64,000 nucleotides of DNA, taken from assembly GCF_056712565.1 (NCBI RefSeq), contig NZ_CM160072.1. The stretch is one strand, 5' to 3'. Under the pieces are notes generated by a model that was not told the origin of the DNA, made no database searches, and worked only from the letters and a program-made list of their open reading frames with translations. This document shows, piece by piece, positions 11,387 through 64,000 of this stretch. Position numbers and translations under genes: made by a program. Within the stretch, counting starts at the first letter, position 1. Every line of letters starts with the position of its first letter.

Positions 11387-12976
11387 ATGACGTTGTCTCC
11401 TTATTTGCAAGAGGTGGCGAAGCGCCGCACTTTTGCCATTATTTCTCACCCGGACGCCGGTAAGACTACCATCACCGAGAAGGTGCTGCTGTTCGGACAG
11501 GCCATTCAGACCGCCGGTACAGTAAAAGGCCGTGGCTCTAACCAGCACGCTAAGTCGGACTGGATGGAGATGGAAAAGCAGCGTGGGATCTCCATCACTA
11601 CGTCTGTGATGCAGTTTCCGTATCACGACTGCCTGGTTAACTTGCTCGATACCCCGGGGCACGAAGACTTCTCGGAAGATACCTATCGTACCCTGACGGC
11701 GGTGGACTGCTGCCTGATGGTTATCGACGCCGCAAAAGGTGTAGAAGATCGTACCCGTAAGCTGATGGAAGTTACCCGTCTGCGCGATACGCCGATCCTC
11801 ACCTTTATGAACAAACTTGACCGTGATATCCGCGACCCGATGGAACTGCTCGATGAAGTTGAGAACGAGCTGAAAATCGGCTGCGCACCGATCACCTGGC
11901 CGATTGGCTGCGGCAAGCTGTTTAAAGGCGTTTACCACCTTTATAAAGATGAAACCTATCTCTATCAGAGCGGTAAAGGCCACACCATTCAGGAAGTCCG
12001 CATTGTTAAAGGGCTGAATAACCCGGATCTCGACGCTGCGGTTGGTGAAGATCTGGCACAGCAGCTGCGTGACGAACTGGAGCTGGTGAAAGGCGCGTCT
12101 AATGAGTTCGACAAAGAGCTGTTCCTTGCGGGCGAAATCACCCCGGTATTCTTTGGTACTGCGCTGGGTAACTTCGGCGTCGATCATATGCTGGATGGCC
12201 TGGTGGAGTGGGCGCCTGCGCCGATGCCGCGTCAGACCGATACCCGTACCGTAGAAGCGAGCGAAGATAAATTTACCGGCTTCGTATTTAAAATTCAGGC
12301 CAACATGGACCCGAAACACCGCGACCGCGTGGCGTTTATGCGCGTGGTATCCGGTAAATATGAAAAAGGCATGAAGCTGCGCCAGGTGCGCACCGCGAAA
12401 GATGTGGTGATCTCCGACGCGCTGACCTTTATGGCGGGTGACCGTTCGCACGTTGAAGAAGCGTATCCTGGCGATATCCTTGGTCTGCACAACCACGGCA
12501 CCATTCAGATCGGCGACACCTTTACCCAGGGTGAGATGATGAAGTTCACCGGTATTCCGAACTTCGCGCCAGAACTGTTCCGTCGTATCCGCCTGAAAGA
12601 TCCGCTGAAGCAAAAACAGCTGCTCAAAGGGCTGGTACAGCTTTCCGAAGAGGGCGCGGTGCAGGTGTTCCGTCCGATCTCCAACAACGATTTGATCGTT
12701 GGCGCGGTTGGTGTGCTGCAGTTTGATGTGGTGGTAGCGCGCCTGAAGAGCGAATACAACGTTGAAGCAGTGTATGAGTCAGTCAACGTTGCCACTGCCC
12801 GCTGGGTAGAATGTGCGGACGCGAAGAAATTCGAAGAGTTCAAGCGTAAGAACGAAAGCCAACTGGCGCTTGATGGCGGCGATAACCTCGCTTACATCGC
12901 TACCAGCATGGTCAACCTGCGCCTGGCGCAGGAACGTTATCCGGACGTTCAGTTCCACCAGACCCGCGAGCATTAA
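11387..12976 (+). CDS. prfC: Peptide chain release factor 3 (translational GTPase)
   Basis: ORF-track frame 11360..12976; ATG at 11387 gives [28 protein letters not shown] (G1 motif); DTPGH G3 motif present. Confidence 0.95.
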
Positions 12977-52959: not shown

Positions 52960-53547
52960 ATGAATACTTTACGTATTGGCTTAGTTTCCATCTCTGATCG
53001 CGCATCCAGCGGCGTTTATCAGGATAAAGGCATCCCTGCGCTGGAAGAATGGCTGACATCGGCGCTAACCACGCCGTTTGAACTGGAAACCCGCTTAATC
53101 CCCGATGAGCAGGCGATCATCGAGCAAACGTTGTGTGAGCTGGTGGATGAAATGAGTTGCCATCTGGTGCTCACCACGGGCGGAACTGGCCCGGCGCGTC
53201 GTGACGTAACGCCCGATGCGACGCTGGCAGTAGCGGACCGCGAGATGCCAGGCTTTGGTGAACAGATGCGCCAGATCAGCCTGCATTTTGTACCAACTGC
53301 GATCCTTTCGCGTCAGGTGGGGGTGATTCGCAAACAGGCGCTGATCCTTAACTTACCCGGTCAACCGAAGTCTATTAAAGAGACGCTGGAAGGTGTGAAG
53401 GACGCTGAGGGTAACGTTGTGGTGCACGGTATTTTTGCCAGCGTACCGTACTGCATTCAGTTGCTGGAAGGGCCATACGTTGAAACGGCACCGGAAGTGG
53501 TTGCAGCATTCAGACCGAAGAGTGCAAGACGCGAAGTTAGCGAATAA
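52960..53547 (+). CDS. mog: Molybdopterin adenylyltransferase
   Basis: ORF-track frame 52957..53547; ATG at 52960 gives MNTLRIGLVSISDRASSGVYQDKGIPALEEWL (195 aa). Confidence 0.95.
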   Translation: MNTLRIGLVSISDRASSGVYQDKGIPALEEWLTSALTTPFELETRLIPDEQAIIEQTLCELVDEMSCHLVLTTGGTGPARRDVTPDATLAVADREMPGFGEQMRQISLHFVPTAILSRQVGVIRKQALILNLPGQPKSIKETLEGVKDAEGNVVVHGIFASVPYCIQLLEGPYVETAPEVVAAFRPKSARREVSE

Positions 53548-53552
53548 AAAAA

Positions 53553-53570
53553 TCCCCCCAAGCGGGGGGA
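53553..53570. terminator. G/C-run hairpin after mog, flanked by an A7 run (bidirectional terminator candidate)
   Basis: aaaaaaa-tcccccc-aagc-gggggga: hairpin preceded by an A-tract on the plus strand, which is a T-tract after the stem when read on the minus strand. Confidence 0.5.
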
Positions 53571-53594
53571 TCAGACTGATGACAAACGCAAAAC

Positions 53595-53694
53595 TGCCTG
53601 ATGCGCTACGCTTATCAGGCCTACGATCTTCTTGCAATATATTGAATTTGCACGATTTTGTAGGCCGGATAAGGCGTTCACGCCGCATCCGGCA
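53595..53694. repeat. REP/BIME element pair between mog and satP
   Basis: ctgcctgatgcgctacgcttatcaggcctac and gtaggccggataaggcgttcacgccgcatccggca, canonical REP palindromes. Confidence 0.7.
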
Positions 53695-53751
53695 TAAACA
53701 AAGCGCACGTTGTTAACAATCTTATCCCTTCGAGCGGGGGGAGCTTAACAA

Positions 53752-54318
53752 TTAGTGAGACTCACCAATCGGCAGAACGGTGCGACCAAACTGCTCGTTC
53801 AGCACTTCACCCATCGCCAGATAGATTGCACTGGCACCGCAGATAAGACCAATCCAGCCGGCAAAGTGGATGATCGCGGCGTTACCGGCAATGTTACCGA
53901 TCGCCAGCAGGGCAAACAGCACGGTCAGGCTAAAGAAAACGAATTGCAGAACGCGTGCGCCTTTCAGCGTGCCGAAGAACATAAACAGCGTAAATATGCC
54001 CCACAGACCCAGGTAGACACCAAGGAACTGTGCATTTGGCGCATCGGTCAGCCCCAGTTTCGGCATCAGCAGAATTGCAACCAGCGTCAGCCAGAAAGAA
54101 CCGTAAGAGGTGAATGCGGTTAAACCGAAAGTGTTGCCTTTTTTGTACTCCAGCAGACCGGCAAAAATTTGCGCGATGCCGCCGTAGAAAATGCCCATGG
54201 CAAGAATAATACCGTCCAGAGCAAAATAACCCACGTTGTGCAGGTTAAGCAGAATGGTGGTCATGCCGAAGCCCATCAGGCCCAGCGGTGCCGGATTAGC
54301 CAACTTAGTGTTGCCCAT
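53752..54318 (-). CDS. satP: Succinate-acetate/proton symporter (GPR1/FUN34/YaaH family)
   Basis: 188-aa hydrophobic ORF MGNTKLANPAPLGLMGFGMTTILLNLHNVGYF... Confidence 0.93.
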   Translation of the reverse strand: MGNTKLANPAPLGLMGFGMTTILLNLHNVGYFALDGIILAMGIFYGGIAQIFAGLLEYKKGNTFGLTAFTSYGSFWLTLVAILLMPKLGLTDAPNAQFLGVYLGLWGIFTLFMFFGTLKGARVLQFVFFSLTVLFALLAIGNIAGNAAIIHFAGWIGLICGASAIYLAMGEVLNEQFGRTVLPIGESH

Positions 54319-54466
54319 AATTCCTCAAAAATCATCATCGAATGAATGGTGAAATAATTTCCCTGAATAACTGTAGTGTTTTCAGGGCGCGGCATAATAA
54401 TCAGCCAGTGGGGCAGTGTCTACGATCTTTTGAGGGGAAAATGAAAATTTTCCCCGGTTTCCGGTA

Positions 54467-55180
54467 TCAGACCTGAGTGGCGCTAACCATCCGGCGCAGG
54501 CAGGCGATTTGCAGTACGGCTGGAATTGTCACGCGATAGGCACTGCCGCTGACCGCTTTAACCCCATTTAATGCTGCGCCCACAGGGCCTCCCAGACCCG
54601 CGCCGCGCAGCAAACCATGCCCAAGCACGCTCATTGCTGCGTGGGTGCGTAAAATGCGGGTCAATTGGCTGGAAAGCAAATGCGACACACCTTTTGCCAA
54701 TAATTTGTCTTTCATCAGCAGCGGCAGCAGCTCTTCCAGCTCATTCACCCTGGCATCGACCGCGTGCAGAAACTCCTGCTTATGTTCCTCGTCCATTTTC
54801 TTCCAGGTATTACGCAGAAATTGTTCCAGTAACTGTTGCTCAATTTCAAACGTAGACATCTCTTTGTCGGCTTTCAGCTTCAATCGCTTTGAAACATCGA
54901 GCAAAATGGCGCGATACAATTTACCGTGTCCGCGCAGTTTGTTGGCGATACTATCGCCACCAAAATGCTGTAATTCTCCGGCAATCAGCTGCCAGTTGCG
55001 GCGGTGTCGCTCGGGATGTCCTTCCATCGATTTAAACAGTTCGTTGCGCATCAGTACGCTGGAGAGGCGAGTTTTGCCTTTTTCATTATGGGTGAGCAGC
55101 CGGGCGAAATTTGCCAACTGTTCCTCACTACAATGCTGGAGAAAATCCAGATCTGAATCATTCAGGTAATTAACATTCAT
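54467..55180 (-). CDS. yaaW: UPF0174-family protein YaaW
   Basis: 237-aa ORF MNVNYLNDSDLDFLQHCSEEQLANFARLLTHNEKGK... Confidence 0.88.
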   Translation of the reverse strand: MNVNYLNDSDLDFLQHCSEEQLANFARLLTHNEKGKTRLSSVLMRNELFKSMEGHPERHRRNWQLIAGELQHFGGDSIANKLRGHGKLYRAILLDVSKRLKLKADKEMSTFEIEQQLLEQFLRNTWKKMDEEHKQEFLHAVDARVNELEELLPLLMKDKLLAKGVSHLLSSQLTRILRTHAAMSVLGHGLLRGAGLGGPVGAALNGVKAVSGSAYRVTIPAVLQIACLRRMVSATQV

Positions 55181-55205
55181 TTTTTGTGGTTTCTATATTC
55201 TGGCG

Positions 55206-55610
55206 TTAGTCGTCGCCGATAATTTTCAGCGTGGCCATATCCGATGAGTTCACTGTATGACCGGAAAAGGTGATTTTTGAGACGCAGCGTTTGTTGTCGT
55301 TATCGCTGTTAATGTTGATCCAGTCAGTGGTTTGCTCTTCTTTTATTTCTGAAGGAATATTCAGGGTCTGACTGGCGCTTCGGGTGGCTTTGAAATAAAT
55401 CGATGCACCGCTTAACTGCAAATCGCCATGGTCGGCTGAGAGTTGTATGCGTTTAACAATGCGACAAACAGGAAGTTTCAGCGCCAGATCGTTGGTTTCG
55501 TTTCGCGGCATTGCAATGACGCCGAGGATTTTATGGTCGTTTGCCTGCGCCGTGCAGCACAGCATCAGGCTAATCGCCAGGCTGGCGGAAATCGTAATAA
55601 CGGATTTCAT
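55206..55610 (-). CDS. yaaI: Periplasmic DUF2541-family protein YaaI
   Basis: 134-aa ORF with signal peptide [23 protein letters not shown]. Confidence 0.88.
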
Positions 55611-55824
55611 AAGGATTCTCTTGGTGGGGAGGGGTAAGGGGATGAAACTAGTTTACTGCTGATAAAGAGAAGTTTCAGGTACGTAATATTTTCTTTTTAT
55701 TACAATTTTTTGATGAATGCCTTGGCTGCGATTCATTCTTTATATGAATAAAATTGTTGTCAGTTTCACGTCTTGTCCTGCCATATCGCGAAATTTCTGC
55801 GCAAAAGCACAAAAAATTTTTGCA

Positions 55825-55863
55825 TCTCCCCCTTGATGACGTGGGTTACGACCCCATTTAGTA
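55825..55863 (+). promoter_or_regulatory. dnaK P1 heat-shock (sigma-32) promoter
   Basis: tctcccccttgatga (-35-like) ... gaccccatttagta (-10-like) matches the sigma-32 consensus TCTCnCCCTTGAA / CCCCATnTA. Confidence 0.75.
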
Positions 55864-55899
55864 GTCAACCGCAGTGAGTGAGTCTGCAAAAAAATGAAA

Positions 55900-55936
55900 T
55901 TGGGCAGTTGAAACCAGACGTTTCGCCCCTATTACA
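55900..55936 (+). promoter_or_regulatory. dnaK P2 heat-shock (sigma-32) promoter
   Basis: ttgaaa (55908-55913) and cgcccctatta (55924-55934), about 50 bp upstream of the dnaK ATG. Confidence 0.65.
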
Positions 55937-55981
55937 GACTCACAACCACATGATGACCGAATATATAGTGGAGACGTTTAG

Positions 55982-57898
55982 ATGGGTAAAATAATTGGTA
56001 TCGACCTGGGTACTACCAACTCTTGTGTAGCGATTATGGATGGCACCACTCCTCGTGTACTGGAGAACGCCGAAGGCGATCGCACCACGCCTTCTATCAT
56101 TGCCTATACCCAGGATGGTGAAACTCTGGTTGGTCAGCCGGCTAAACGTCAGGCAGTGACGAACCCGCAAAACACCCTGTTTGCGATTAAACGCCTGATT
56201 GGCCGCCGCTTCCAGGACGAAGAAGTACAGCGTGATGTTTCCATCATGCCGTTCAAAATTATTGCTGCTGATAACGGCGACGCATGGGTCGAAGTTAAAG
56301 GCCAGAAAATGGCACCGCCGCAGATCTCTGCTGAAGTGCTGAAAAAAATGAAGAAAACCGCTGAAGATTACCTGGGTGAACCGGTAACTGAAGCTGTTAT
56401 TACCGTACCGGCATACTTTAACGATGCTCAGCGTCAGGCAACCAAAGACGCAGGCCGTATCGCTGGTCTGGAAGTAAAACGTATCATCAACGAACCGACC
56501 GCAGCTGCGCTGGCTTACGGTCTGGACAAAGGTACTGGCAACCGTACTATCGCGGTTTATGACCTGGGTGGTGGTACTTTCGATATTTCCATTATCGAAA
56601 TCGACGAAGTTGACGGCGAAAAAACCTTCGAAGTTCTGGCAACCAACGGTGATACCCACCTGGGTGGTGAAGACTTCGACAGTCGTCTGATCAACTATCT
56701 GGTTGAAGAATTCAAGAAAGATCAGGGCATTGACCTGCGCAACGATCCGCTGGCAATGCAGCGCCTGAAAGAAGCGGCAGAAAAAGCGAAAATCGAACTG
56801 TCTTCCGCTCAGCAGACCGACGTTAACCTGCCGTACATCACTGCAGACGCGACCGGTCCGAAACACATGAACATCAAAGTGACTCGTGCGAAACTGGAAA
56901 GCCTGGTTGAAGATCTGGTAAACCGTTCCATTGAGCCGCTGAAAGTTGCACTGCAGGACGCTGGCCTGTCCGTATCTGATATCGACGACGTTATCCTCGT
57001 TGGTGGTCAGACTCGTATGCCAATGGTTCAGAAGAAAGTTGCTGAATTCTTTGGTAAAGAGCCGCGTAAAGATGTTAACCCGGACGAAGCTGTAGCCATC
57101 GGTGCTGCTGTTCAGGGTGGTGTTCTGACTGGTGACGTAAAAGACGTACTGCTGCTGGACGTTACCCCGCTGTCTCTGGGTATCGAAACCATGGGCGGTG
57201 TGATGACCACGCTGATCGCGAAAAACACCACTATCCCGACCAAGCACAGCCAGGTGTTCTCTACCGCTGAAGACAACCAGTCTGCGGTAACCATCCATGT
57301 GCTGCAGGGTGAACGTAAACGTGCGGCTGATAACAAATCTCTGGGTCAGTTCAACCTGGATGGTATCAACCCGGCACCGCGCGGCATGCCGCAGATCGAA
57401 GTTACCTTCGATATCGATGCTGACGGTATCCTGCACGTTTCCGCGAAAGACAAAAACAGCGGTAAAGAGCAGAAGATCACTATCAAGGCTTCTTCTGGTC
57501 TGAACGAAGATGAAATCCAGAAAATGGTACGCGACGCAGAAGCTAACGCCGAAGCTGACCGTAAGTTTGAAGAGCTGGTACAGACTCGCAACCAGGGCGA
57601 CCATCTGCTGCACAGCACCCGTAAGCAGGTTGAAGAAGCAGGCGACAAACTGCCGGCTGACGACAAAACTGCTATCGAGTCTGCGCTGACTGCACTGGAA
57701 ACTGCTCTGAAAGGTGAAGACAAAGCCGCTATCGAAGCGAAAATGCAGGAACTGGCACAGGTTTCCCAGAAACTGATGGAAATCGCCCAGCAGCAACATG
57801 CCCAGCAGCAGACTGCCGGTGCTGATGCTTCTGCAAACAACGCGAAAGATGACGATGTTGTCGACGCTGAATTTGAAGAAGTCAAAGACAAAAAATAA
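55982..57898 (+). CDS. dnaK: Hsp70 chaperone DnaK
   Basis: 638-aa [41 protein letters not shown]... Confidence 0.99.
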
Positions 57899-57986
57899 TC
57901 GCCCTATAAACGGGTAATTATACTGACACGGGCGAAGGGGAATTTCCTCTCCGCCCGTGCATTCATCTAGGGGCAAATCAAAAAAG

Positions 57987-59117
57987 ATGGCTAAGCAAGA
58001 TTATTACGAGATTTTAGGCGTTTCCAAAACAGCGGAAGAGCGTGAAATCAAAAAGGCCTACAAACGCCTGGCCATGAAATACCACCCGGACCGTAACCAG
58101 GGTGACAAAGAGGCCGAGGCGAAATTTAAAGAGATCAAGGAAGCTTATGAAGTTCTGACCGACTCGCAAAAACGTGCGGCATACGATCAGTATGGTCATG
58201 CTGCGTTTGAGCAAGGCGGCATGGGCGGCGGCGGTTTTGGCGGCGGCGCAGACTTCAGCGATATTTTTGGTGACGTTTTCGGCGATATTTTTGGCGGCGG
58301 ACGTGGTCGTCAACGTGCGGCGCGCGGTGCTGATTTACGCTATAACATGGAGCTCACCCTCGAAGAAGCTGTACGTGGCGTGACCAAAGAGATCCGCATT
58401 CCGACTCTGGAAGAGTGTGACGTTTGCCACGGTAGCGGTGCAAAACCAGGTACACAGCCGCAGACCTGTCCGACCTGTCATGGTTCTGGCCAGGTGCAGA
58501 TGCGCCAGGGTTTCTTTGCCGTGCAGCAGACCTGTCCACACTGTCAGGGCCGCGGTACGCTGATCAAAGATCCGTGCAACAAATGTCATGGTCATGGTCG
58601 TGTTGAGCGCAGCAAAACGCTGTCCGTTAAAATCCCGGCAGGGGTGGACACTGGAGACCGCATCCGTCTTGCGGGCGAAGGTGAAGCGGGTGAACACGGC
58701 GCACCGGCAGGCGATCTGTACGTTCAGGTTCAGGTTAAACAGCACCCGATTTTCGAGCGTGAAGGCAACAACCTGTATTGCGAAGTCCCGATCAACTTCG
58801 CTATGGCGGCGCTGGGTGGTGAAATCGAAGTACCGACCCTTGATGGTCGCGTCAAACTGAAAGTGCCTGGCGAAACCCAGACCGGTAAGCTGTTCCGTAT
58901 GCGCGGTAAAGGCGTCAAGTCTGTCCGCGGTGGCGCACAGGGTGATTTGCTATGCCGCGTTGTTGTCGAAACACCGGTAGGTTTGAACGAGAAGCAGAAA
59001 CAGCTGCTGCAAGAGCTGCAAGAAAGCTTTGGTGGCCCAACCGGCGAGCACAACAGCCCGCGTTCAAAGAGCTTCTTTGATGGCGTGAAGAAGTTTTTTG
59101 ACGACCTGACTCGCTAA
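57987..59117 (+). CDS. dnaJ: Hsp40 co-chaperone DnaJ
   Basis: ORF-track frame 57957..59117; ATG at 57987 gives [40 protein letters not shown] (J domain), Gly/Phe-rich linker, four CxxCxGxG zinc-finger repeats; 376 aa. Confidence 0.99.
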
Positions 59118-59194
59118 CCTCCCCAAAAGCCTGCCCGTGGGCAGGCCAGGGTAAAAACCAGGGTGCGTTGAAGATATGCGAGCACCTGTAAAGT

Positions 59195-59214
59195 GGCGGG
59201 GATCACTCCCCGCC
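59195..59214. terminator. Stem-loop between dnaJ and the hokC 3' end
   Basis: ggcggggatcactccccgcc perfect inverted repeat; could terminate dnaJ and/or form the 3' structure of the hok mRNA. Confidence 0.5.
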
Positions 59215-59221
59215 GTTGCTC

Positions 59222-59374
59222 TTACTCGGATTCGTAAGCCGTGAAAACAGCAACCTCCGTCTGGCCAGTTCGGATGTGAACCTCACAGAGGTCTTTTCTC
59301 GTTACCAGCGCCGCCACTACGGCGGTGATACAGATGACGATCAGGGCGACAATCATCGCCTTATGCTGCTTCAT
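59222..59374 (-). CDS. hokC: Type I toxin HokC/Gef (small membrane toxin)
   Basis: Translation MKQHKAMIVALIVICITAVVAALVTRKDLCEVHIRTGQTEVAVFTAYESE (50 aa), Hok/Gef family. Confidence 0.93.
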   Translation of the reverse strand: MKQHKAMIVALIVICITAVVAALVTRKDLCEVHIRTGQTEVAVFTAYESE

Positions 59375-59431
59375 TGCTCTCTTCTCCTTGACCTTACGGT
59401 CAGTAAGAGGCACTCTACATGTGTTCTGCAT
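59222..59431 (-). CDS. mokC: MokC, overlapping reading frame translationally coupled to hokC
   Basis: Same frame, upstream ATG at 59431 giving MQNTCRVPLTDRKVKEKRA-MKQHK... (69 aa). Confidence 0.8.
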   Translation of the reverse strand: MQNTCRVPLTDRKVKEKRAMKQHKAMIVALIVICITAVVAALVTRKDLCEVHIRTGQTEVAVFTAYESE

Positions 59432-59477
59432 ATAGGGGGCCTCGGGTTGATGGTAAAATATCACTCGGGGCTTTTCT
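59423..59477 (+). ncRNA. sokC: SokC antisense RNA (approximate position)
   Basis: Placed only by the expected position relative to the mokC start in hok/sok loci; not verified by promoter or structure. Confidence 0.4.
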
Positions 59478-59985
59478 CTATCTGCCGTTCAGCTAATGCC
59501 TGAGACAGACAGCCTCAAGCACCCGCCGCTATTATATCGCTCTCTTTAACCCATTCTGTTTTATCGATTCTAATCCTGAAGACGCCTCGCATTTTTGCGT
59601 AATCAATCTTTAGTACATTGTTTATTTTAACTCTTATGTGCGTTTTCATTTACAAAAGTTGAGATTATGAACAAGAGGTTTAAGTTATGCCTGAATGGTG
59701 AGTTATTACTGGAGAAAGTAATAGAAGATACAAAATATTCTTGTACAGAATTGAATTTTCTTTTTGTGAGGAAAAATGTTTATAAATCAATGAGTGATAT
59801 TTAAAATCGACACACTTTTTGAAACACGATACCTCCACACCCGGGGGTAAAAGTAATCTGCGATCTCCATCACGCTTTGCCATTCACCTTTAAATATACT
59901 TTCTGAGTCGTTCTTAATCAAAATGAATTATCTGATGTATTGATTTCTATGGAACCATAAAAAAAATGAATGGAGAGCATATTAT

Positions 59986-60747
59986 ATGTCTGCCAAAAGA
60001 CGGCTTCTTATTGCGTGTGCCCTGACAACGATTTTCTATCACCTTCCTGCATATTCTTCATTAGAATATAAAGGTTCCTTTGGCTCAATAAATGCAGGTT
60101 ATGCTGACTGGAATAGTGGCTTCATTAACACTCATCGTGGTGAAGTATGGAAAGTGACTGCAGACTTTGGTGTGAATTTTAAAGAAGCCGAGTTTTACTC
60201 ATTTTATGAAAGCAATGTGCTTAACCATGCCGTAGCGGGGCGTAATCATACCGTTTCTGCTATGACACATGTCAGACTCTTTGACTCCAATATGACTTTC
60301 TTTGGCAAGATCTATGGTCAATGGGATAACTCATGGGGTGACGATCTTGATATGTTTTATGGTTTGGGCTACCTCGGCTGGAATGGTTCATGGGGGTTTT
60401 TTAAACCGTATATTGGATTACATAATCAATCTGGAGACTACGTCTCAGCCAAATATGGACAAACAAATGGCTGGAATGGTTATGTTGTTGGCTGGACAGC
60501 AGTATTACCTTTTACGTTATTTGACGAAAAATTTGTTTTATCTAACTGGAATGAAATAGAACTGGACAGAAATGATGCCTATGCGGAACAACAATTTGGT
60601 CGGAATGGGCTAAATGGCGGTTTAACAGTAGCCTGGAAGTTCTATCCTCGCTGGAAAGCCAGTGTGACGTGGCGTTATTTCGATAATAAGTTGGGCTACG
60701 ATGGTTTTGGCGATCAAATGATTTATATGCTTGGTTATGATTTCTAA
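59986..60747 (+). CDS. Tsx/OmpK-family outer-membrane channel
   Basis: 253-aa ORF; signal peptide MSAKRRLLIACALTTIFYHLPAYS; aromatic/Gly-rich beta-strand pattern (WNGSWGFFKPYIG; WNGYVVGWTAV); C-terminal ...MLGYDF resembling Tsx ...GYNF; RBS tggagag; AT-rich. Confidence 0.7.
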   Translation: MSAKRRLLIACALTTIFYHLPAYSSLEYKGSFGSINAGYADWNSGFINTHRGEVWKVTADFGVNFKEAEFYSFYESNVLNHAVAGRNHTVSAMTHVRLFDSNMTFFGKIYGQWDNSWGDDLDMFYGLGYLGWNGSWGFFKPYIGLHNQSGDYVSAKYGQTNGWNGYVVGWTAVLPFTLFDEKFVLSNWNEIELDRNDAYAEQQFGRNGLNGGLTVAWKFYPRWKASVTWRYFDNKLGYDGFGDQMIYMLGYDF

Positions 60748-60766
60748 TTTTCATCAGGGAATAATT

Positions 60767-62260
60767 ATGCAGAAAACATTAATGGCCAGTTTGATCGGCC
60801 TTGCAGTTTGCACAGGGAATGCTTTTAATCCAGTCGTAGCTGCCGAGACTAAACAACCCAATTTAGTCATCATTATGGCGGATGATTTAGGCTATGGTGA
60901 TTTAGCAACATATGGACATCAGATCGTTAAAACACCCAATATTGACAGGCTTGCCCAGGAGGGCGTCAAATTTACTGACTACTATGCACCAGCTCCCTTA
61001 AGTTCTCCTTCGCGGGCGGGGTTATTAACGGGGCGGATGCCATTTCGTACCGGCATACGTTCATGGATCCCAACGGGAAAAGATGTGGCATTAGGGCGTA
61101 ATGAACTCACGATTGCTAATCTACTCAAAGCGCAAGGGTATGACACGGCCATGATGGGTAAGCTGCATCTGAATGCAGGCGGCGATCGCACCGATCAGCC
61201 GCAGGCAAAAGATATGGGCTTTGATTACTCACTGGTTAATACGGCGGGTTTTGTTACCGACGCCACGCTGGATAACGCTAAAGAACGCCCGCGTTATGGC
61301 ATGGTTTACCCGACAGGCTGGCTACGTAACGGGCAACCCACTCCACGAGCCGATAAAATGAGCGGTGAGTATGTCAGTTCGGAAGTCGTCAACTGGCTGG
61401 ATAACAAAAAGGACAGCAAGCCTTTCTTCCTCTATGTTGCTTTTACCGAAGTGCATAGCCCCCTGGCTTCGCCCAAAAAATACCTCGACATGTACTCACA
61501 ATATATGAGCGCGTATCAGAAGCAGCATCCTGATTTATTTTATGGCGACTGGGCAGACAAACCCTGGCGTGGTGTGGGGGAATATTATGCCAATATCAGC
61601 TATCTGGATGCACAGGTTGGAAAAGTGCTGGATAAAATCAAAGCGATGGGTGAAGAAGATAACACAATCGTTATTTTTACCAGTGATAACGGTCCGGTAA
61701 CGCGTGAAGCGCGCAAAGTGTATGAGCTGAATTTGGCAGGGGAAACGGATGGATTACGCGGTCGCAAGGATAACCTTTGGGAAGGCGGAATTCGTGTTCC
61801 AGCCATTATTAAATATGGTAAACATCTACCACAGGGAATGGTTTCAGATACACCCGTTTATGGTCTGGACTGGATGCCTACTTTAGCGAAAATGATGAAC
61901 TTCAAATTACCTACAGACCGTACTTTCGATGGTGAATCGCTGGTTCCTGTTCTTGAGCAAAAAGCATTGAAACGCGAAAAGCCATTAATTTTCGGGATTG
62001 ATATGCCATTCCAGGATGATCCAACCGATGAATGGGCGATCCGTGATGGTGACTGGAAGATGATTATCGATCGCAATAATAAACCGAAATATCTCTACAA
62101 TCTGAAATCTGATCGTTATGAAACACTTAATCTGATCGGTAAAAAACCAGATATTGAAAAACAGATGTATGGTAAGTTTTTAAAATATAAAACTGATATT
62201 GATAATGATTCTCTAATGAAAGCCAGAGGTGATAAACCAGAAGCGGTGACCTGGGGCTAA
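60767..62260 (+). CDS. Periplasmic sulfatase, Ser-type (S-x-P-S-R)
   Basis: ORF-track frame 60731..62260; ATG at 60767 with RBS aggga; signal peptide MQKTLMASLIGLAVCTGNAFNPVVAAE; N-terminal IIMADDLGYGD and signature APAPLSSPSRAGLLTGR; 19 bp after the channel gene. Confidence 0.85.
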   Translation: MQKTLMASLIGLAVCTGNAFNPVVAAETKQPNLVIIMADDLGYGDLATYGHQIVKTPNIDRLAQEGVKFTDYYAPAPLSSPSRAGLLTGRMPFRTGIRSWIPTGKDVALGRNELTIANLLKAQGYDTAMMGKLHLNAGGDRTDQPQAKDMGFDYSLVNTAGFVTDATLDNAKERPRYGMVYPTGWLRNGQPTPRADKMSGEYVSSEVVNWLDNKKDSKPFFLYVAFTEVHSPLASPKKYLDMYSQYMSAYQKQHPDLFYGDWADKPWRGVGEYYANISYLDAQVGKVLDKIKAMGEEDNTIVIFTSDNGPVTREARKVYELNLAGETDGLRGRKDNLWEGGIRVPAIIKYGKHLPQGMVSDTPVYGLDWMPTLAKMMNFKLPTDRTFDGESLVPVLEQKALKREKPLIFGIDMPFQDDPTDEWAIRDGDWKMIIDRNNKPKYLYNLKSDRYETLNLIGKKPDIEKQMYGKFLKYKTDIDNDSLMKARGDKPEAVTWG

Positions 62261-62308
62261 CCTGATAATCATAATAAATGTAATGTATGCCATTTAGGGC
62301 TATGCCCG

Positions 62309-62346
62309 CCTGATTCAGTGCTACGCATTGAATCAGGTTCTTTTCG
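62309..62346 (+). terminator. Rho-independent terminator after the sulfatase gene
   Basis: cctgattcagtg-ctacgc-attgaatcagg hairpin followed by ttcttttcg. Confidence 0.65.
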
Positions 62347-62388
62347 CGTTGAACAATATCAAGATACGGCTATTCGCAGGGAGTGGAT

Positions 62389-63648
62389 ATGTTTACCAAC
62401 GTAAATGTTGATTGTTGCAAAACACCAGGATGTAAAAACCTGGGGTTGCTGAATAGCCAGGATTATGTCGCACAGGGTAAAAATATTTTATGCCGTGAAT
62501 GTGGTTACTTGTTTCCAGTGATATCTGAACAGTCGCTTAATATTTATCGTAATATTGTGAATCACTCCTGGAGAGGTTTGATTTGCCAATGTTCAACTTG
62601 CGGAGGCACGTCCCTCAAAAAATATGGATATTCTGCACAAGGCCAGAGAAGAATGTATTGCCATCATTGTGAGAAAACATTTATCACTCTGGAACATGTA
62701 ATTACCACACCACGAGGAGCCCTGTTAGCATTGATGATTGAGCAAGGGGAGGCACTTGCGGATATCAGAAAGTCATTACTTCTTAACAGCACTGGACTTA
62801 GCCGTGAACTGTTAAAATTAGCGCGTGAAGCAAACTATAAAGAAAGTCGACAGTGTTTCCCAGCTTCTGATATTACCCTGAGTACCCGCGCTTTTCGCGT
62901 CAAGTATAATGGTAGCAATAACTCTCTTTATGCTCTTGTTACCGCAGAAGAACAAAGCGGCAGGGTGGTTGCCATCTCAACCAATTACTCCCCATCTGCC
63001 GTAGAGCAACATTATCAATACACATCGAACTATGAAGAGCGTATGTCTCCAGGGACGCTGGCACATCATGTCCAGCGCAAAGAGTTACTTACTATGCGGC
63101 GGGATACCTTGTTTGATATTGATTACGGCCCGGCAGTTTTACATCAAAACGATCCGGGAATGTTGGTAAAACCGGTTCTTCCGGCATATCGTCATTTTGA
63201 ACTGGTCAGAATACTGACCGATGAGCATTCCAACAACGTTCAGCATTACCTTGATCACGAATGCTTTATATTGGGCGGCTGCCTGATGGCTAATTTGCAG
63301 CATATTCATCAAGGTCGCTGCCATATTTCCTTTGTCAAAGAGCGCGGTGTGGCACCCGCCACCATTGATTTTCCACCGCGATTATTCCTTAGTGGTGGGG
63401 TACGAAATAATGTCTGGCGTGCATTTTCTAACCGCAATTATTCAATGGCTGTATGCAATCTCACTGGCAGTAAGAAAGTCCGCGAGATGCGGCATGCAAC
63501 ATTGAACAGTGCGACGCGTTTTATCCACTTTGTGGAGAACCATCCTTTCCTTATATCATTGAACCGAATGTCTCCTGCGAATGTCGTTTCTACATTAGAT
63601 ATCCTCAAACATCTGTGGAATAAAAAACTAGAGCATGGAACAATTTAA
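62389..63648 (+). CDS. Hypothetical cysteine-rich protein with two N-terminal transposase-type zinc ribbons
   Basis: ORF-track frame 62383..63648; ATG at 62389 preceded by gcagggag RBS; 419 aa; ribbon 1 CCKTPGC-x19-CREC, ribbon 2 CQCSTCGG-x17-CHHCEKTF (G-x-Q-R-x-x-C-x-x-C-x-K-T-F), followed by about 300 aa with no motif I can assign. Confidence 0.6.
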   Translation: MFTNVNVDCCKTPGCKNLGLLNSQDYVAQGKNILCRECGYLFPVISEQSLNIYRNIVNHSWRGLICQCSTCGGTSLKKYGYSAQGQRRMYCHHCEKTFITLEHVITTPRGALLALMIEQGEALADIRKSLLLNSTGLSRELLKLAREANYKESRQCFPASDITLSTRAFRVKYNGSNNSLYALVTAEEQSGRVVAISTNYSPSAVEQHYQYTSNYEERMSPGTLAHHVQRKELLTMRRDTLFDIDYGPAVLHQNDPGMLVKPVLPAYRHFELVRILTDEHSNNVQHYLDHECFILGGCLMANLQHIHQGRCHISFVKERGVAPATIDFPPRLFLSGGVRNNVWRAFSNRNYSMAVCNLTGSKKVREMRHATLNSATRFIHFVENHPFLISLNRMSPANVVSTLDILKHLWNKKLEHGTI

Positions 63649-63882
63649 TTATTACTTTTCCGAATAATTTCTTCAGAAATCTTGACATTAGACTATGATT
63701 AATGGGGTTTAAGGTCATCAGCCGCCGCTTTCGGGCATCAAAAACTCATCTCTCGCTGATGGCGCAATTCTTTTAATAGATCGTAAAAAGCGAGCTATTC
63801 CTACACTATAATCTGATTTTAACGATGATTCGTGCGGGGTAAAATCGTGAAAACGATCTATTCACCTGAAGAGAAATAAAAA

Positions 63883-64000
63883 GTGAAACATCTGCATCGA
63901 TTCTTTAGCAGTGATGCCTCGGGAGGCATTATTCTCATTATTGCCGCTGTATTAGCGATGATTATGGCCAACAGCGGTGCAACCAGTGGATGGTATCACG
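63883..64000 (+). CDS. nhaA: Na+/H+ antiporter NhaA, N-terminal fragment; runs off the right edge
   Basis: GTG at 63883 gives [39 protein letters not shown], matching the NhaA N-terminus as I remember it. Confidence 0.9.

Follow-up and report, generated by a model that had tools for sequence, protein, structure and literature searches.

Upstream of dnaK in the DNA analysed here lie two motifs that resemble the -35 and -10 elements of sigma-32 promoters. Are they the P1 and P2 heat-shock promoters known from E. coli K-12, how far can each be recognised from its letters, and what else does the region hold? A sequence-only reading had taken the two motifs as tandem sigma-32 promoters of dnaK and had classed them as known biology. 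The K-12 promoters dnaKp1 and dnaKp2 were reportedly described by Cowing et al. in 1985 as sigma-32 promoters of dnaK-dnaJ. In what follows, the window is the whole analysed stretch of 64,000 nucleotides from contig NZ_CM160072.1 (assembly GCF_056712565.1), and all coordinates refer to it unless they are given as K-12 positions.

The dnaK promoter region and its K-12 counterpart

Many E. coli chromosomes, among them those of Nissle 1917 and ATCC 11775, carry the segment 55611-56100 with 100% identity, and it was found in 5,424 of the 5,426 complete E. coli genomes, where the open reading frame is annotated dnaK. Judged by sequence identity, the window is E. coli chromosome. The intergenic gap between yaaI and dnaK measures 371 bp and holds both P1 and P2 (Table 1).

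From 55825 to the dnaK ATG (55982), alignment with K-12 MG1655 gives a single difference, G55845, at which K-12 has T. The T of K-12 is probably the derived state, because G at this position (P1 -22) is common to E. albertii, Salmonella and Citrobacter. Position -22 is not among the -35 and extended -10 contacts that a cryo-EM study of the sigma-32 open complex describes (PMC10216364), and G there is presumably neutral. Upstream of the promoters, at 55611-55770, the window differs from K-12 by a 5-bp deletion and about ten SNPs; the TACCC of K-12 is missing after 55646, and the SNPs cluster in the yaaI-proximal part of the gap. On the 3' side of the deletion, window coordinates equal K-12 coordinates plus 43819. 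Apart from these differences at -22 and further upstream, the region agrees with K-12 dnaKp1 and dnaKp2 in its start sites, its -35 and -10 elements and its gene context (yaaI, dnaK, tpke11, dnaJ). To call the region known biology was therefore apt: one spacer base aside, P1 and P2 are those of the already known, well-characterised K-12 dnaK promoter region.

Table 1. Coordinates of promoter, leader and gene features around the yaaI-dnaK intergenic gap, in order of position.
Feature	Position	Strand	Remarks
yaaI (K-12 name), 134-aa ORF	55206-55610	-	flanks the gap opposite dnaK
A6T5 tract	55811-55821	+	-56 to -46 of P1, UP-element position
P1 -35 region TCTCCCCCTTGAT	55825-55837	+	10/11 specified consensus positions
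P1 core -35 hexamer CTTGAT	55832-55837	+	at -35 to -30
Sole K-12 difference between 55825 and the ATG, G55845	55845	+	P1 spacer, -22; from alignment to MG1655
P1 -10 element CCCCATTTA	55852-55860	+	-15 to -7; 9/9 consensus positions; A-11 = 55856
P1 start (A)	55867	+	K-12 12048; leader 115 nt
Predicted conserved stem-loop	55870-55955	+	~85 nt; in the P1 leader; encloses P2
5' arm GTGAGTCTG	55878-55886	+	P1 +12 to +20; from inverted repeat, MFE fold, RNAalifold and covariation count
A7 tract	55888-55894	+	-54 to -48 of P2; 90-100% conserved
P2 -35 region TTGGGCAGTTGAA	55900-55912	+	TTGAAA 100% conserved
Predicted inner hairpin GGGC+GAAAC / GTTTC+GCCC	55902-55928	+	overlaps P2 -35 and start of P2 -10
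P2 core -35 hexamer GTTGAA	55907-55912	+	at -35 to -30
P2 -10 element CCCCTATTA	55926-55934	+	by consensus scoring
3' arm CAGACTCAC	55935-55943	+	P1 +69 to +77; P2 -7 to +2
P2 start (A)	55942	+	K-12 12123; leader 40 nt; strongest start in the region
Shine-Dalgarno GGAG	55970-55973	+	8 nt before ATG; nearly invariant in the alignment
dnaK CDS	55982-57898	+	638 aa; annotated molecular chaperone DnaK in 100%-identical genomes; K-12 b0014

P1 stands out from chance by its consensus match, P2 does not

The strings assigned to the two promoters by the sequence-only reading occur exactly where it had placed them, upstream of the dnaK ORF: 55825-55863 reads TCTCCCCCTTGATGACGTGGGTTACGACCCCATTTAGTA and 55900-55936 reads TTGGGCAGTTGAAACCAGACGTTTCGCCCCTATTACA. 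They were scored against the consensus TNtCNCcCTTGAA / CCCCATtTa given in PMC12077118, with equal weight for its 20 specified positions, and we scanned both strands of the window (128 kb) with 200 dinucleotide-preserving shuffles as the null. P1 scores 19/20 and is the only site above 15 in the 128 kb, the next best reaching 15; the highest score in the shuffles was 17, obtained once in 200. P2 scores 14/20. Scores of 14 or higher occur at 22 positions in the window and at 20.2 ± 4.6 in the shuffles, and by plain consensus counting P2 is not above chance window-wide. The expected number of sites of at least 14/20 within the 200 nt upstream of a gene is about 0.03.

P2 does reach significance on this local expectation and on its core pattern. 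The core patterns of P1 and P2 are each unique in the window, at 0.08-0.09 expected occurrences; the P2 pattern is TTGAA-N12-15-CCCCNNTNA, with an expectation of 0.09. A strict search for CTTGAA-N11-16-CCCCATNT across the window returned no match because P1 reads CTTGAT and P2 reads CCCCTA.

Sigma-32 promoters are characterised by a -35 element resembling CTTGAA after a C-rich stretch and by a -10 element resembling CCCCATNT with an A at -11. P1 shows both (scores in Table 1) and is a near-perfect member of the general class that includes the groES, htpG, lon and hslVU promoters, as well as being a reference template for structural work. P2 shares with this class the core TTGAA, the C-rich -10 element and A-11. 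Its hexamer GTTGAA fully matches the TTGAA core, giving 7/11 overall for the -35 element, and its -10 element, when positions are counted back from the start site, spans -15 to -8 as CCCTATTA and has its A-11 at 55931. It differs from the class in having T at -12 and in carrying GGGCAG in place of the C-rich stretch before the -35; this upstream half is off the sigma-32 consensus and pairs with GCCC in the leader fold described below.

The earlier claim that the consensus matches are directly readable thus holds for P1 (19/20, unique) and fails for P2, whose 14/20 is at chance level window-wide. P2 is recognised mainly from its position and from prior knowledge, and other evidence is needed. 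For scans of this kind the lesson is that the letters suffice to recognise P1, but P2 is indistinguishable from chance unless its context is considered.

Start sites coincide with both elements

Such evidence comes from start-site mapping in K-12. A Cappable-seq data set of MG1655 (PMC4782308, supplementary file 1) records + strand starts with scores of 60.6 and 112.2 at positions 12048 and 12123, respectively, which map to A55867 and A55942 in the window at the offset of +43819. Each start lies 7-8 nt 3' of its -10 element, and 35 nt separate it from the base that opens its -35 hexamer. Numbered by the K-12 starts, both promoters thus show the spacing of sigma-32 promoters, in which the start falls about 6-8 nt beyond the -10 element. 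The two share one geometry, with the hexamer at -35 to -30 and an A at -11 (55856 in P1 and 55931 in P2). Comparison with mapped start sites had been named in advance as the check on the promoter assignment, and the published mapping, transferred from K-12 by sequence, places starts 3' of both elements.

The same result bears on the reading of P1, P2 or both as chance resemblances devoid of promoter activity. The one observation that speaks for it is the window-wide count at the level of P2 (14/20), and it is refuted by the K-12 starts, which were mapped exactly where both motifs predict them. The P1 score is moreover beyond that of any shuffle, and both motifs keep a fixed distance to the ATG in Enterobacteriaceae and Edwardsiella. 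We accord this reading next to no probability.

Weaker starts lie further downstream. The sequence-only reading listed two dnaK promoters, and both are borne out; it omitted a third, minor one that has been reported in the literature (PMC3082872). Minor Cappable-seq starts were recorded at 12140 (score 5.6) and 12155 (score 2.2) (PMC4782308). In the start-site table of Kim 2012 the sole dnaK entry is 12157, with 4 reads, which is neither P1 nor P2; we judged that table to be uninformative on P1 and P2 rather than contradictory. In window coordinates these minor starts are 55959 (K-12 12140) and 55974-55976 (12155 from Cappable-seq and 12157 from Kim 2012), and they are candidates for the third dnaK promoter. 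We found no convincing sigma-32 match for either; the only promoter-like sequence near them is a sigma-70-like TATAGT (55964-69), whose -35 is poor. If transcription began at 55974-76, it would do so 3' of the Shine-Dalgarno sequence.

P1 and P2 as sigma-32 promoters

Direct evidence on sigma-32 comes from K-12 material. The sigma-32 open complex has been solved by cryo-EM on a scaffold of dnaKp1 spanning -39 to +15 with the same +1 (PMC10216364). This scaffold corresponds to window 55828-55881 except at two positions: in the -35 hexamer a T was changed to A by design, and at -22 it carries the T of K-12. Its numbering of +1, A-11, C-12 and CTTGAA agrees with the P1 numbering used here. The structure shows a flipped-out A-11 and a paired C-12, and sigma-32 transcription assays on dnaKp1 were reported alongside it (PMC10216364). 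In a reconstituted system, expression from a dnaKp1 fragment (-150 to +20) was higher with sigma-32 than with sigma-70 (PMC2910072). By ChIP-exo, multiple RpoH sites were confirmed at dnaK, unlike at htpG and mutL; tandem sigma-32 promoters are uncommon, and among the three reported multi-site loci dnaK was the only one confirmed (PMC9104697). Both RpoH sites upstream of Salmonella dnaK have been reported as 100% conserved (PMC12077118). The start sites, the binding and transcription of P1 by sigma-32 and the RpoH occupancy at more than one site are carried over to this strain from K-12 by sequence identity and would be expected to hold here. We conclude that 55825-55936 is, almost certainly, dnaK P1 and P2, the tandem sigma-32 (RpoH) promoters of the dnaK-dnaJ heat-shock operon; no observation speaks against this identification.

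Both promoters present RNA polymerase carrying sigma-32 with a -35 hexamer and a C-rich -10 element, from which transcription begins at A55867 for P1, with a leader of 115 nt, and at A55942 for P2, with a leader of 40 nt. With 75 bp between the starts, two polymerases could probably bind without overlapping. Output from P1 and P2 tracks the level of active sigma-32 in the cell, which rises on heat shock or protein misfolding and is brought down again by DnaK. P1 and P2 are the reference sigma-32 promoters; they are intact here, so that the strain should have standard heat-shock control of dnaK.

Sigma-32 and sigma-70 promoters are said to overlap widely, as described by Wade et al. in 2006, and we counted this in favour of a different reading of P2, namely that sigma-70 serves it alongside sigma-32 or predominantly, so that the housekeeping polymerase provides basal dnaK expression. 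The sequence TTGAAA-16-TATTAC (55908-55935, +) matches the sigma-70 consensus at 9/12 positions, more than any other place in the intergenic region, the upstream half of the P2 -35 region departs from the sigma-32 consensus, and in the one Cappable-seq data set the P2 start signal is stronger than that of P1 (112 against 61; PMC4782308). Against it, P2 has the exact sigma-32 geometry, with its hexamer at -35 to -30, CCC at -15 to -13 and an invariant A-11, and an automated sigma-70 scan reported no site at P2. The finding of more than one RpoH site at dnaK by ChIP-exo (PMC9104697) counts against it as well. We regard the sigma-70 reading as a whole as unlikely: exclusive use of P2 by sigma-70 is very unlikely, dual use by sigma-32 and sigma-70 is possible, and part of the P2 activity at 37 C could be driven by sigma-70.

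Both promoters are preceded by A/T tracts in positions that suggest putative UP elements, A6T5 at -56 to -46 of P1 and A7 at -54 to -48 of P2. The A6T5 tract is 60-100% conserved across 84 enterobacterial upstream regions, against 30-50% in its flanks. Within the P1 RNA, the A7 tract would lie within the 5' side of the internal loop. An inverted repeat, TTTTTGCA (55817-24) and TGCAAAAA (55885-92), connects the two tracts in E. coli.

The tandem arrangement is conserved in Enterobacteriaceae and Edwardsiella

We retrieved dnaK loci from a one-genome-per-species collection with the 32 nt at the start of the dnaK CDS as anchor, which yielded 99 loci. A P1-type site is present in 83 of them, belonging to Enterobacteriaceae and Edwardsiella, at about -155 to -159 from the ATG. 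For footprinting we aligned 84 upstream regions from these groups. In the P1 footprint, CCCCCTTGATG and CGACCCCAT (CCCCAT) are about 100% conserved and the full -10 element 80-100%, with the spacer at 40-70%. In that of P2, TTGAAA and A-11 (A55931) are invariant in the 84 sequences and the elements as a whole are 90-100% conserved, with the spacer at 60-80%; most other genera carry CCCTTATTA as the P2 -10 element. Both promoters are thus kept in Enterobacteriaceae and Edwardsiella while their spacers vary. The pattern expected of a sigma-32 promoter, in which the elements are conserved and the spacer is not, is clear for P1 and weaker for P2. The P2 footprint is the less specific of the two because the whole leader 3' of P1 is conserved.

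Four loci of marine gammaproteobacterial, Oceanospirillales-type origin (L011, L043, L057 and L075) have a single sigma-32-like site about -107 from the dnaK ATG, CCCTTGAAAC-N-CACCAATATA, in place of the tandem pair. From this distribution, the tandem layout of P1 and P2 may be an innovation specific to Enterobacterales.

Two further observations concern the retrieved loci themselves. One labelled Chryseobacterium sp. (L081, CACSKA010000010.1) has an enterobacterial-type dnaK upstream region with TCTCCCCCTTGATG...CCCCATCTT at -156, which suggests that the assembly is contaminated or mislabelled. Several MAGs labelled Clostridia, Oscillospiraceae or Saccharibacteria (L010, L020, L026, L028 and L030) match the 32-nt dnaK start and have no P1/P2 arrangement.

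A predicted conserved stem-loop in the P1 leader

The conservation of the leader 3' of P1 coincides with a predicted RNA structure that encloses P2. The P1 leader at 55867-55957 folds with -23.5 kcal/mol (z-score -2.96), and 0 of 200 shuffled sequences fold as well. At the centre of the predicted structure is a 9-bp stem between two distant arms (Table 1), which further conserved pairs lengthen as far as 55870 on one side and 55955 on the other. It encloses an inner hairpin built from the flanks of the P2 -35 and -10 elements. Both arms would be present only in P1 transcripts, because transcription from P2 begins within the 3' arm, at 55942.

Comparison across genera points to the same stem. 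RNAalifold, run on 45 diverse sequences, predicted the 9-bp stem unprompted, and the long-range stem appears in the own minimum-energy fold of all 70 distinct leaders (70/70), at a mean z-score of -2.4. We counted covariation on a 12-pair structure made up of the 9-bp stem (helix 2) and three outer pairs of helix 1. In this structure 92.4% of alignment cells are paired, and sliding the partners out of the real register lowers the paired fraction to 18-51%. Cells changed on both sides number 26, against 8.8 ± 2.2 in shuffles (0/500), a statistic that is inflated by the shared ancestry of the sequences. The changes are compensatory: E. coli pairs GAGTCTG with CAGACTC, most genera pair GAACCTG with CAGGTTC (GT/AC becoming AC/GT), and one locus (L017) pairs GGATCTG with CAGATCC (GGAT/ATCC). 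In Edwardsiella, an unrelated 9-bp stem, GTTGTTACC/GGTAACAAC, occupies the same place.

The other helices are less informative. Helices 1, 4 and 5 are nearly invariant, and the covariation test says little about them; pairing in the inner hairpin is 87-90% conserved in columns so nearly invariant that the test has low power there. Helix 3 of the fold of the single sequence (55895-97 with 55932-34) was rejected, being paired in 56% across genera. Taken together, the compensatory pairs and a folding energy better than that of shuffled sequences are the general hallmarks of a conserved structured RNA element, and the P1 leader shows both.

Might the inverted repeat instead act in DNA, as protein half-sites or a cruciform, or reflect independent constraints on the two promoters? 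The arms do fall in constrained sequence, the 3' arm overlapping P2 at -7 to +2 and the 5' arm lying in the initial transcribed region of P1, and the shared ancestry that inflates shuffle-based covariation statistics also works in favour of such a reading. Several features of the alignment oppose it. About 24 cells are G.U on the + strand (13 at pair 28:94 and 5 at pair 27:95); because these many G.U cells would be A.C mismatches on the opposite strand, they argue for plus-strand RNA over an element of DNA. The compensatory changes, the wholly different stem of Edwardsiella in the same place and the loss of pairing in the slid-partner controls point the same way, and the 48-bp gap between the 9-bp arms would be unusual for a dimeric binding site. 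We consider this reading of the repeat improbable.

A reading of the stem-loop as an RNA thermometer was rejected, since the structure extends no further than 55955 and leaves both the Shine-Dalgarno sequence (55970-73) and the ATG without pairs or weakly paired. The leader has in common with known thermometers, such as the thermosensor in the rpoH coding region and the ROSE and fourU elements of small heat-shock genes, that it is structured RNA in a heat-shock transcript, but it differs from them in leaving the translation start free and so is without the trait that defines the class. An intrinsic terminator or attenuator was likewise rejected, as the 3' arm is followed by AACCACAUGAUGACC with no U tract; a terminator scan of 55800-55981 gave no site. 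A permissive Rfam search (E up to 1) of 53000-64000 produced no match inside 55611-55981. We did not find the P1-leader stem-loop described in the searchable literature; older papers may mention the dyad.

The closest parallel is the stem-loop in the 5' UTR of hslVU (clpQY), a sigma-32-dependent operon, where deletion and mutation data showed that it is needed for message stability (PMC2681174). Like the structure predicted here, it is conserved, sits in the leader of a heat-shock mRNA close to the 5' end and leaves the ribosome-binding site free (PMC2681174). The two share no sequence similarity, and the dnaK structure differs in enclosing a second promoter, in belonging to the P1 isoform only and in being known from prediction.

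Our best guess is that the stem-loop would stabilise the P1 mRNA or otherwise set it apart from the P2 mRNA. A more specific proposal, which we advance tentatively and to which we give somewhat less than an even chance, is that the two dnaK mRNA isoforms are handled differently after transcription, with the P1 stem-loop serving as a 5' stabiliser or as an RNase III or RNase E site, such that the ratio of P1 to P2 transcripts would set the half-life of dnaK mRNA or the dnaK/dnaJ output. If the isoforms do differ in this way, two constraints would act on the bases of the P2 -35 and -10 elements, one on promoter DNA and the other on paired RNA. The hairpin would also account for the strong conservation of the 5' UTR and, within it, of the non-consensus GGGCAG that precedes P2. 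It would be a modest addition to a very well-studied locus and is the only new element here.

As to the nuclease, dnaK mRNA in an rnc mutant was raised 2.0-fold on arrays and 1.3-fold on northern blots (PMC3082872), and in a second study the induction was reduced, an effect attributable to lower RpoH. On these weak and indirect data we assign no nuclease to the P1 leader.

Neighbouring RNA elements

Other structured RNAs were matched by Rfam in the vicinity. The tpke11 sRNA family matches 57909-57986 (+) in the dnaK-dnaJ spacer (68.8 bits, E 8e-14), and the hairpin at this match lies on the boundary at which dnaK and dnaJ mRNA levels reportedly diverge. On the 3' side of dnaJ, a sok antitoxin match at 59372-59524 (-; 116.9 bits) marks the hokC/sokC toxin-antitoxin locus. 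At 53617-53699, two adjoining matches, ES036 (50.6 bits, -) and naRNA4 (38.3 bits, sub-threshold, +), probably represent a REP-type repeat element.
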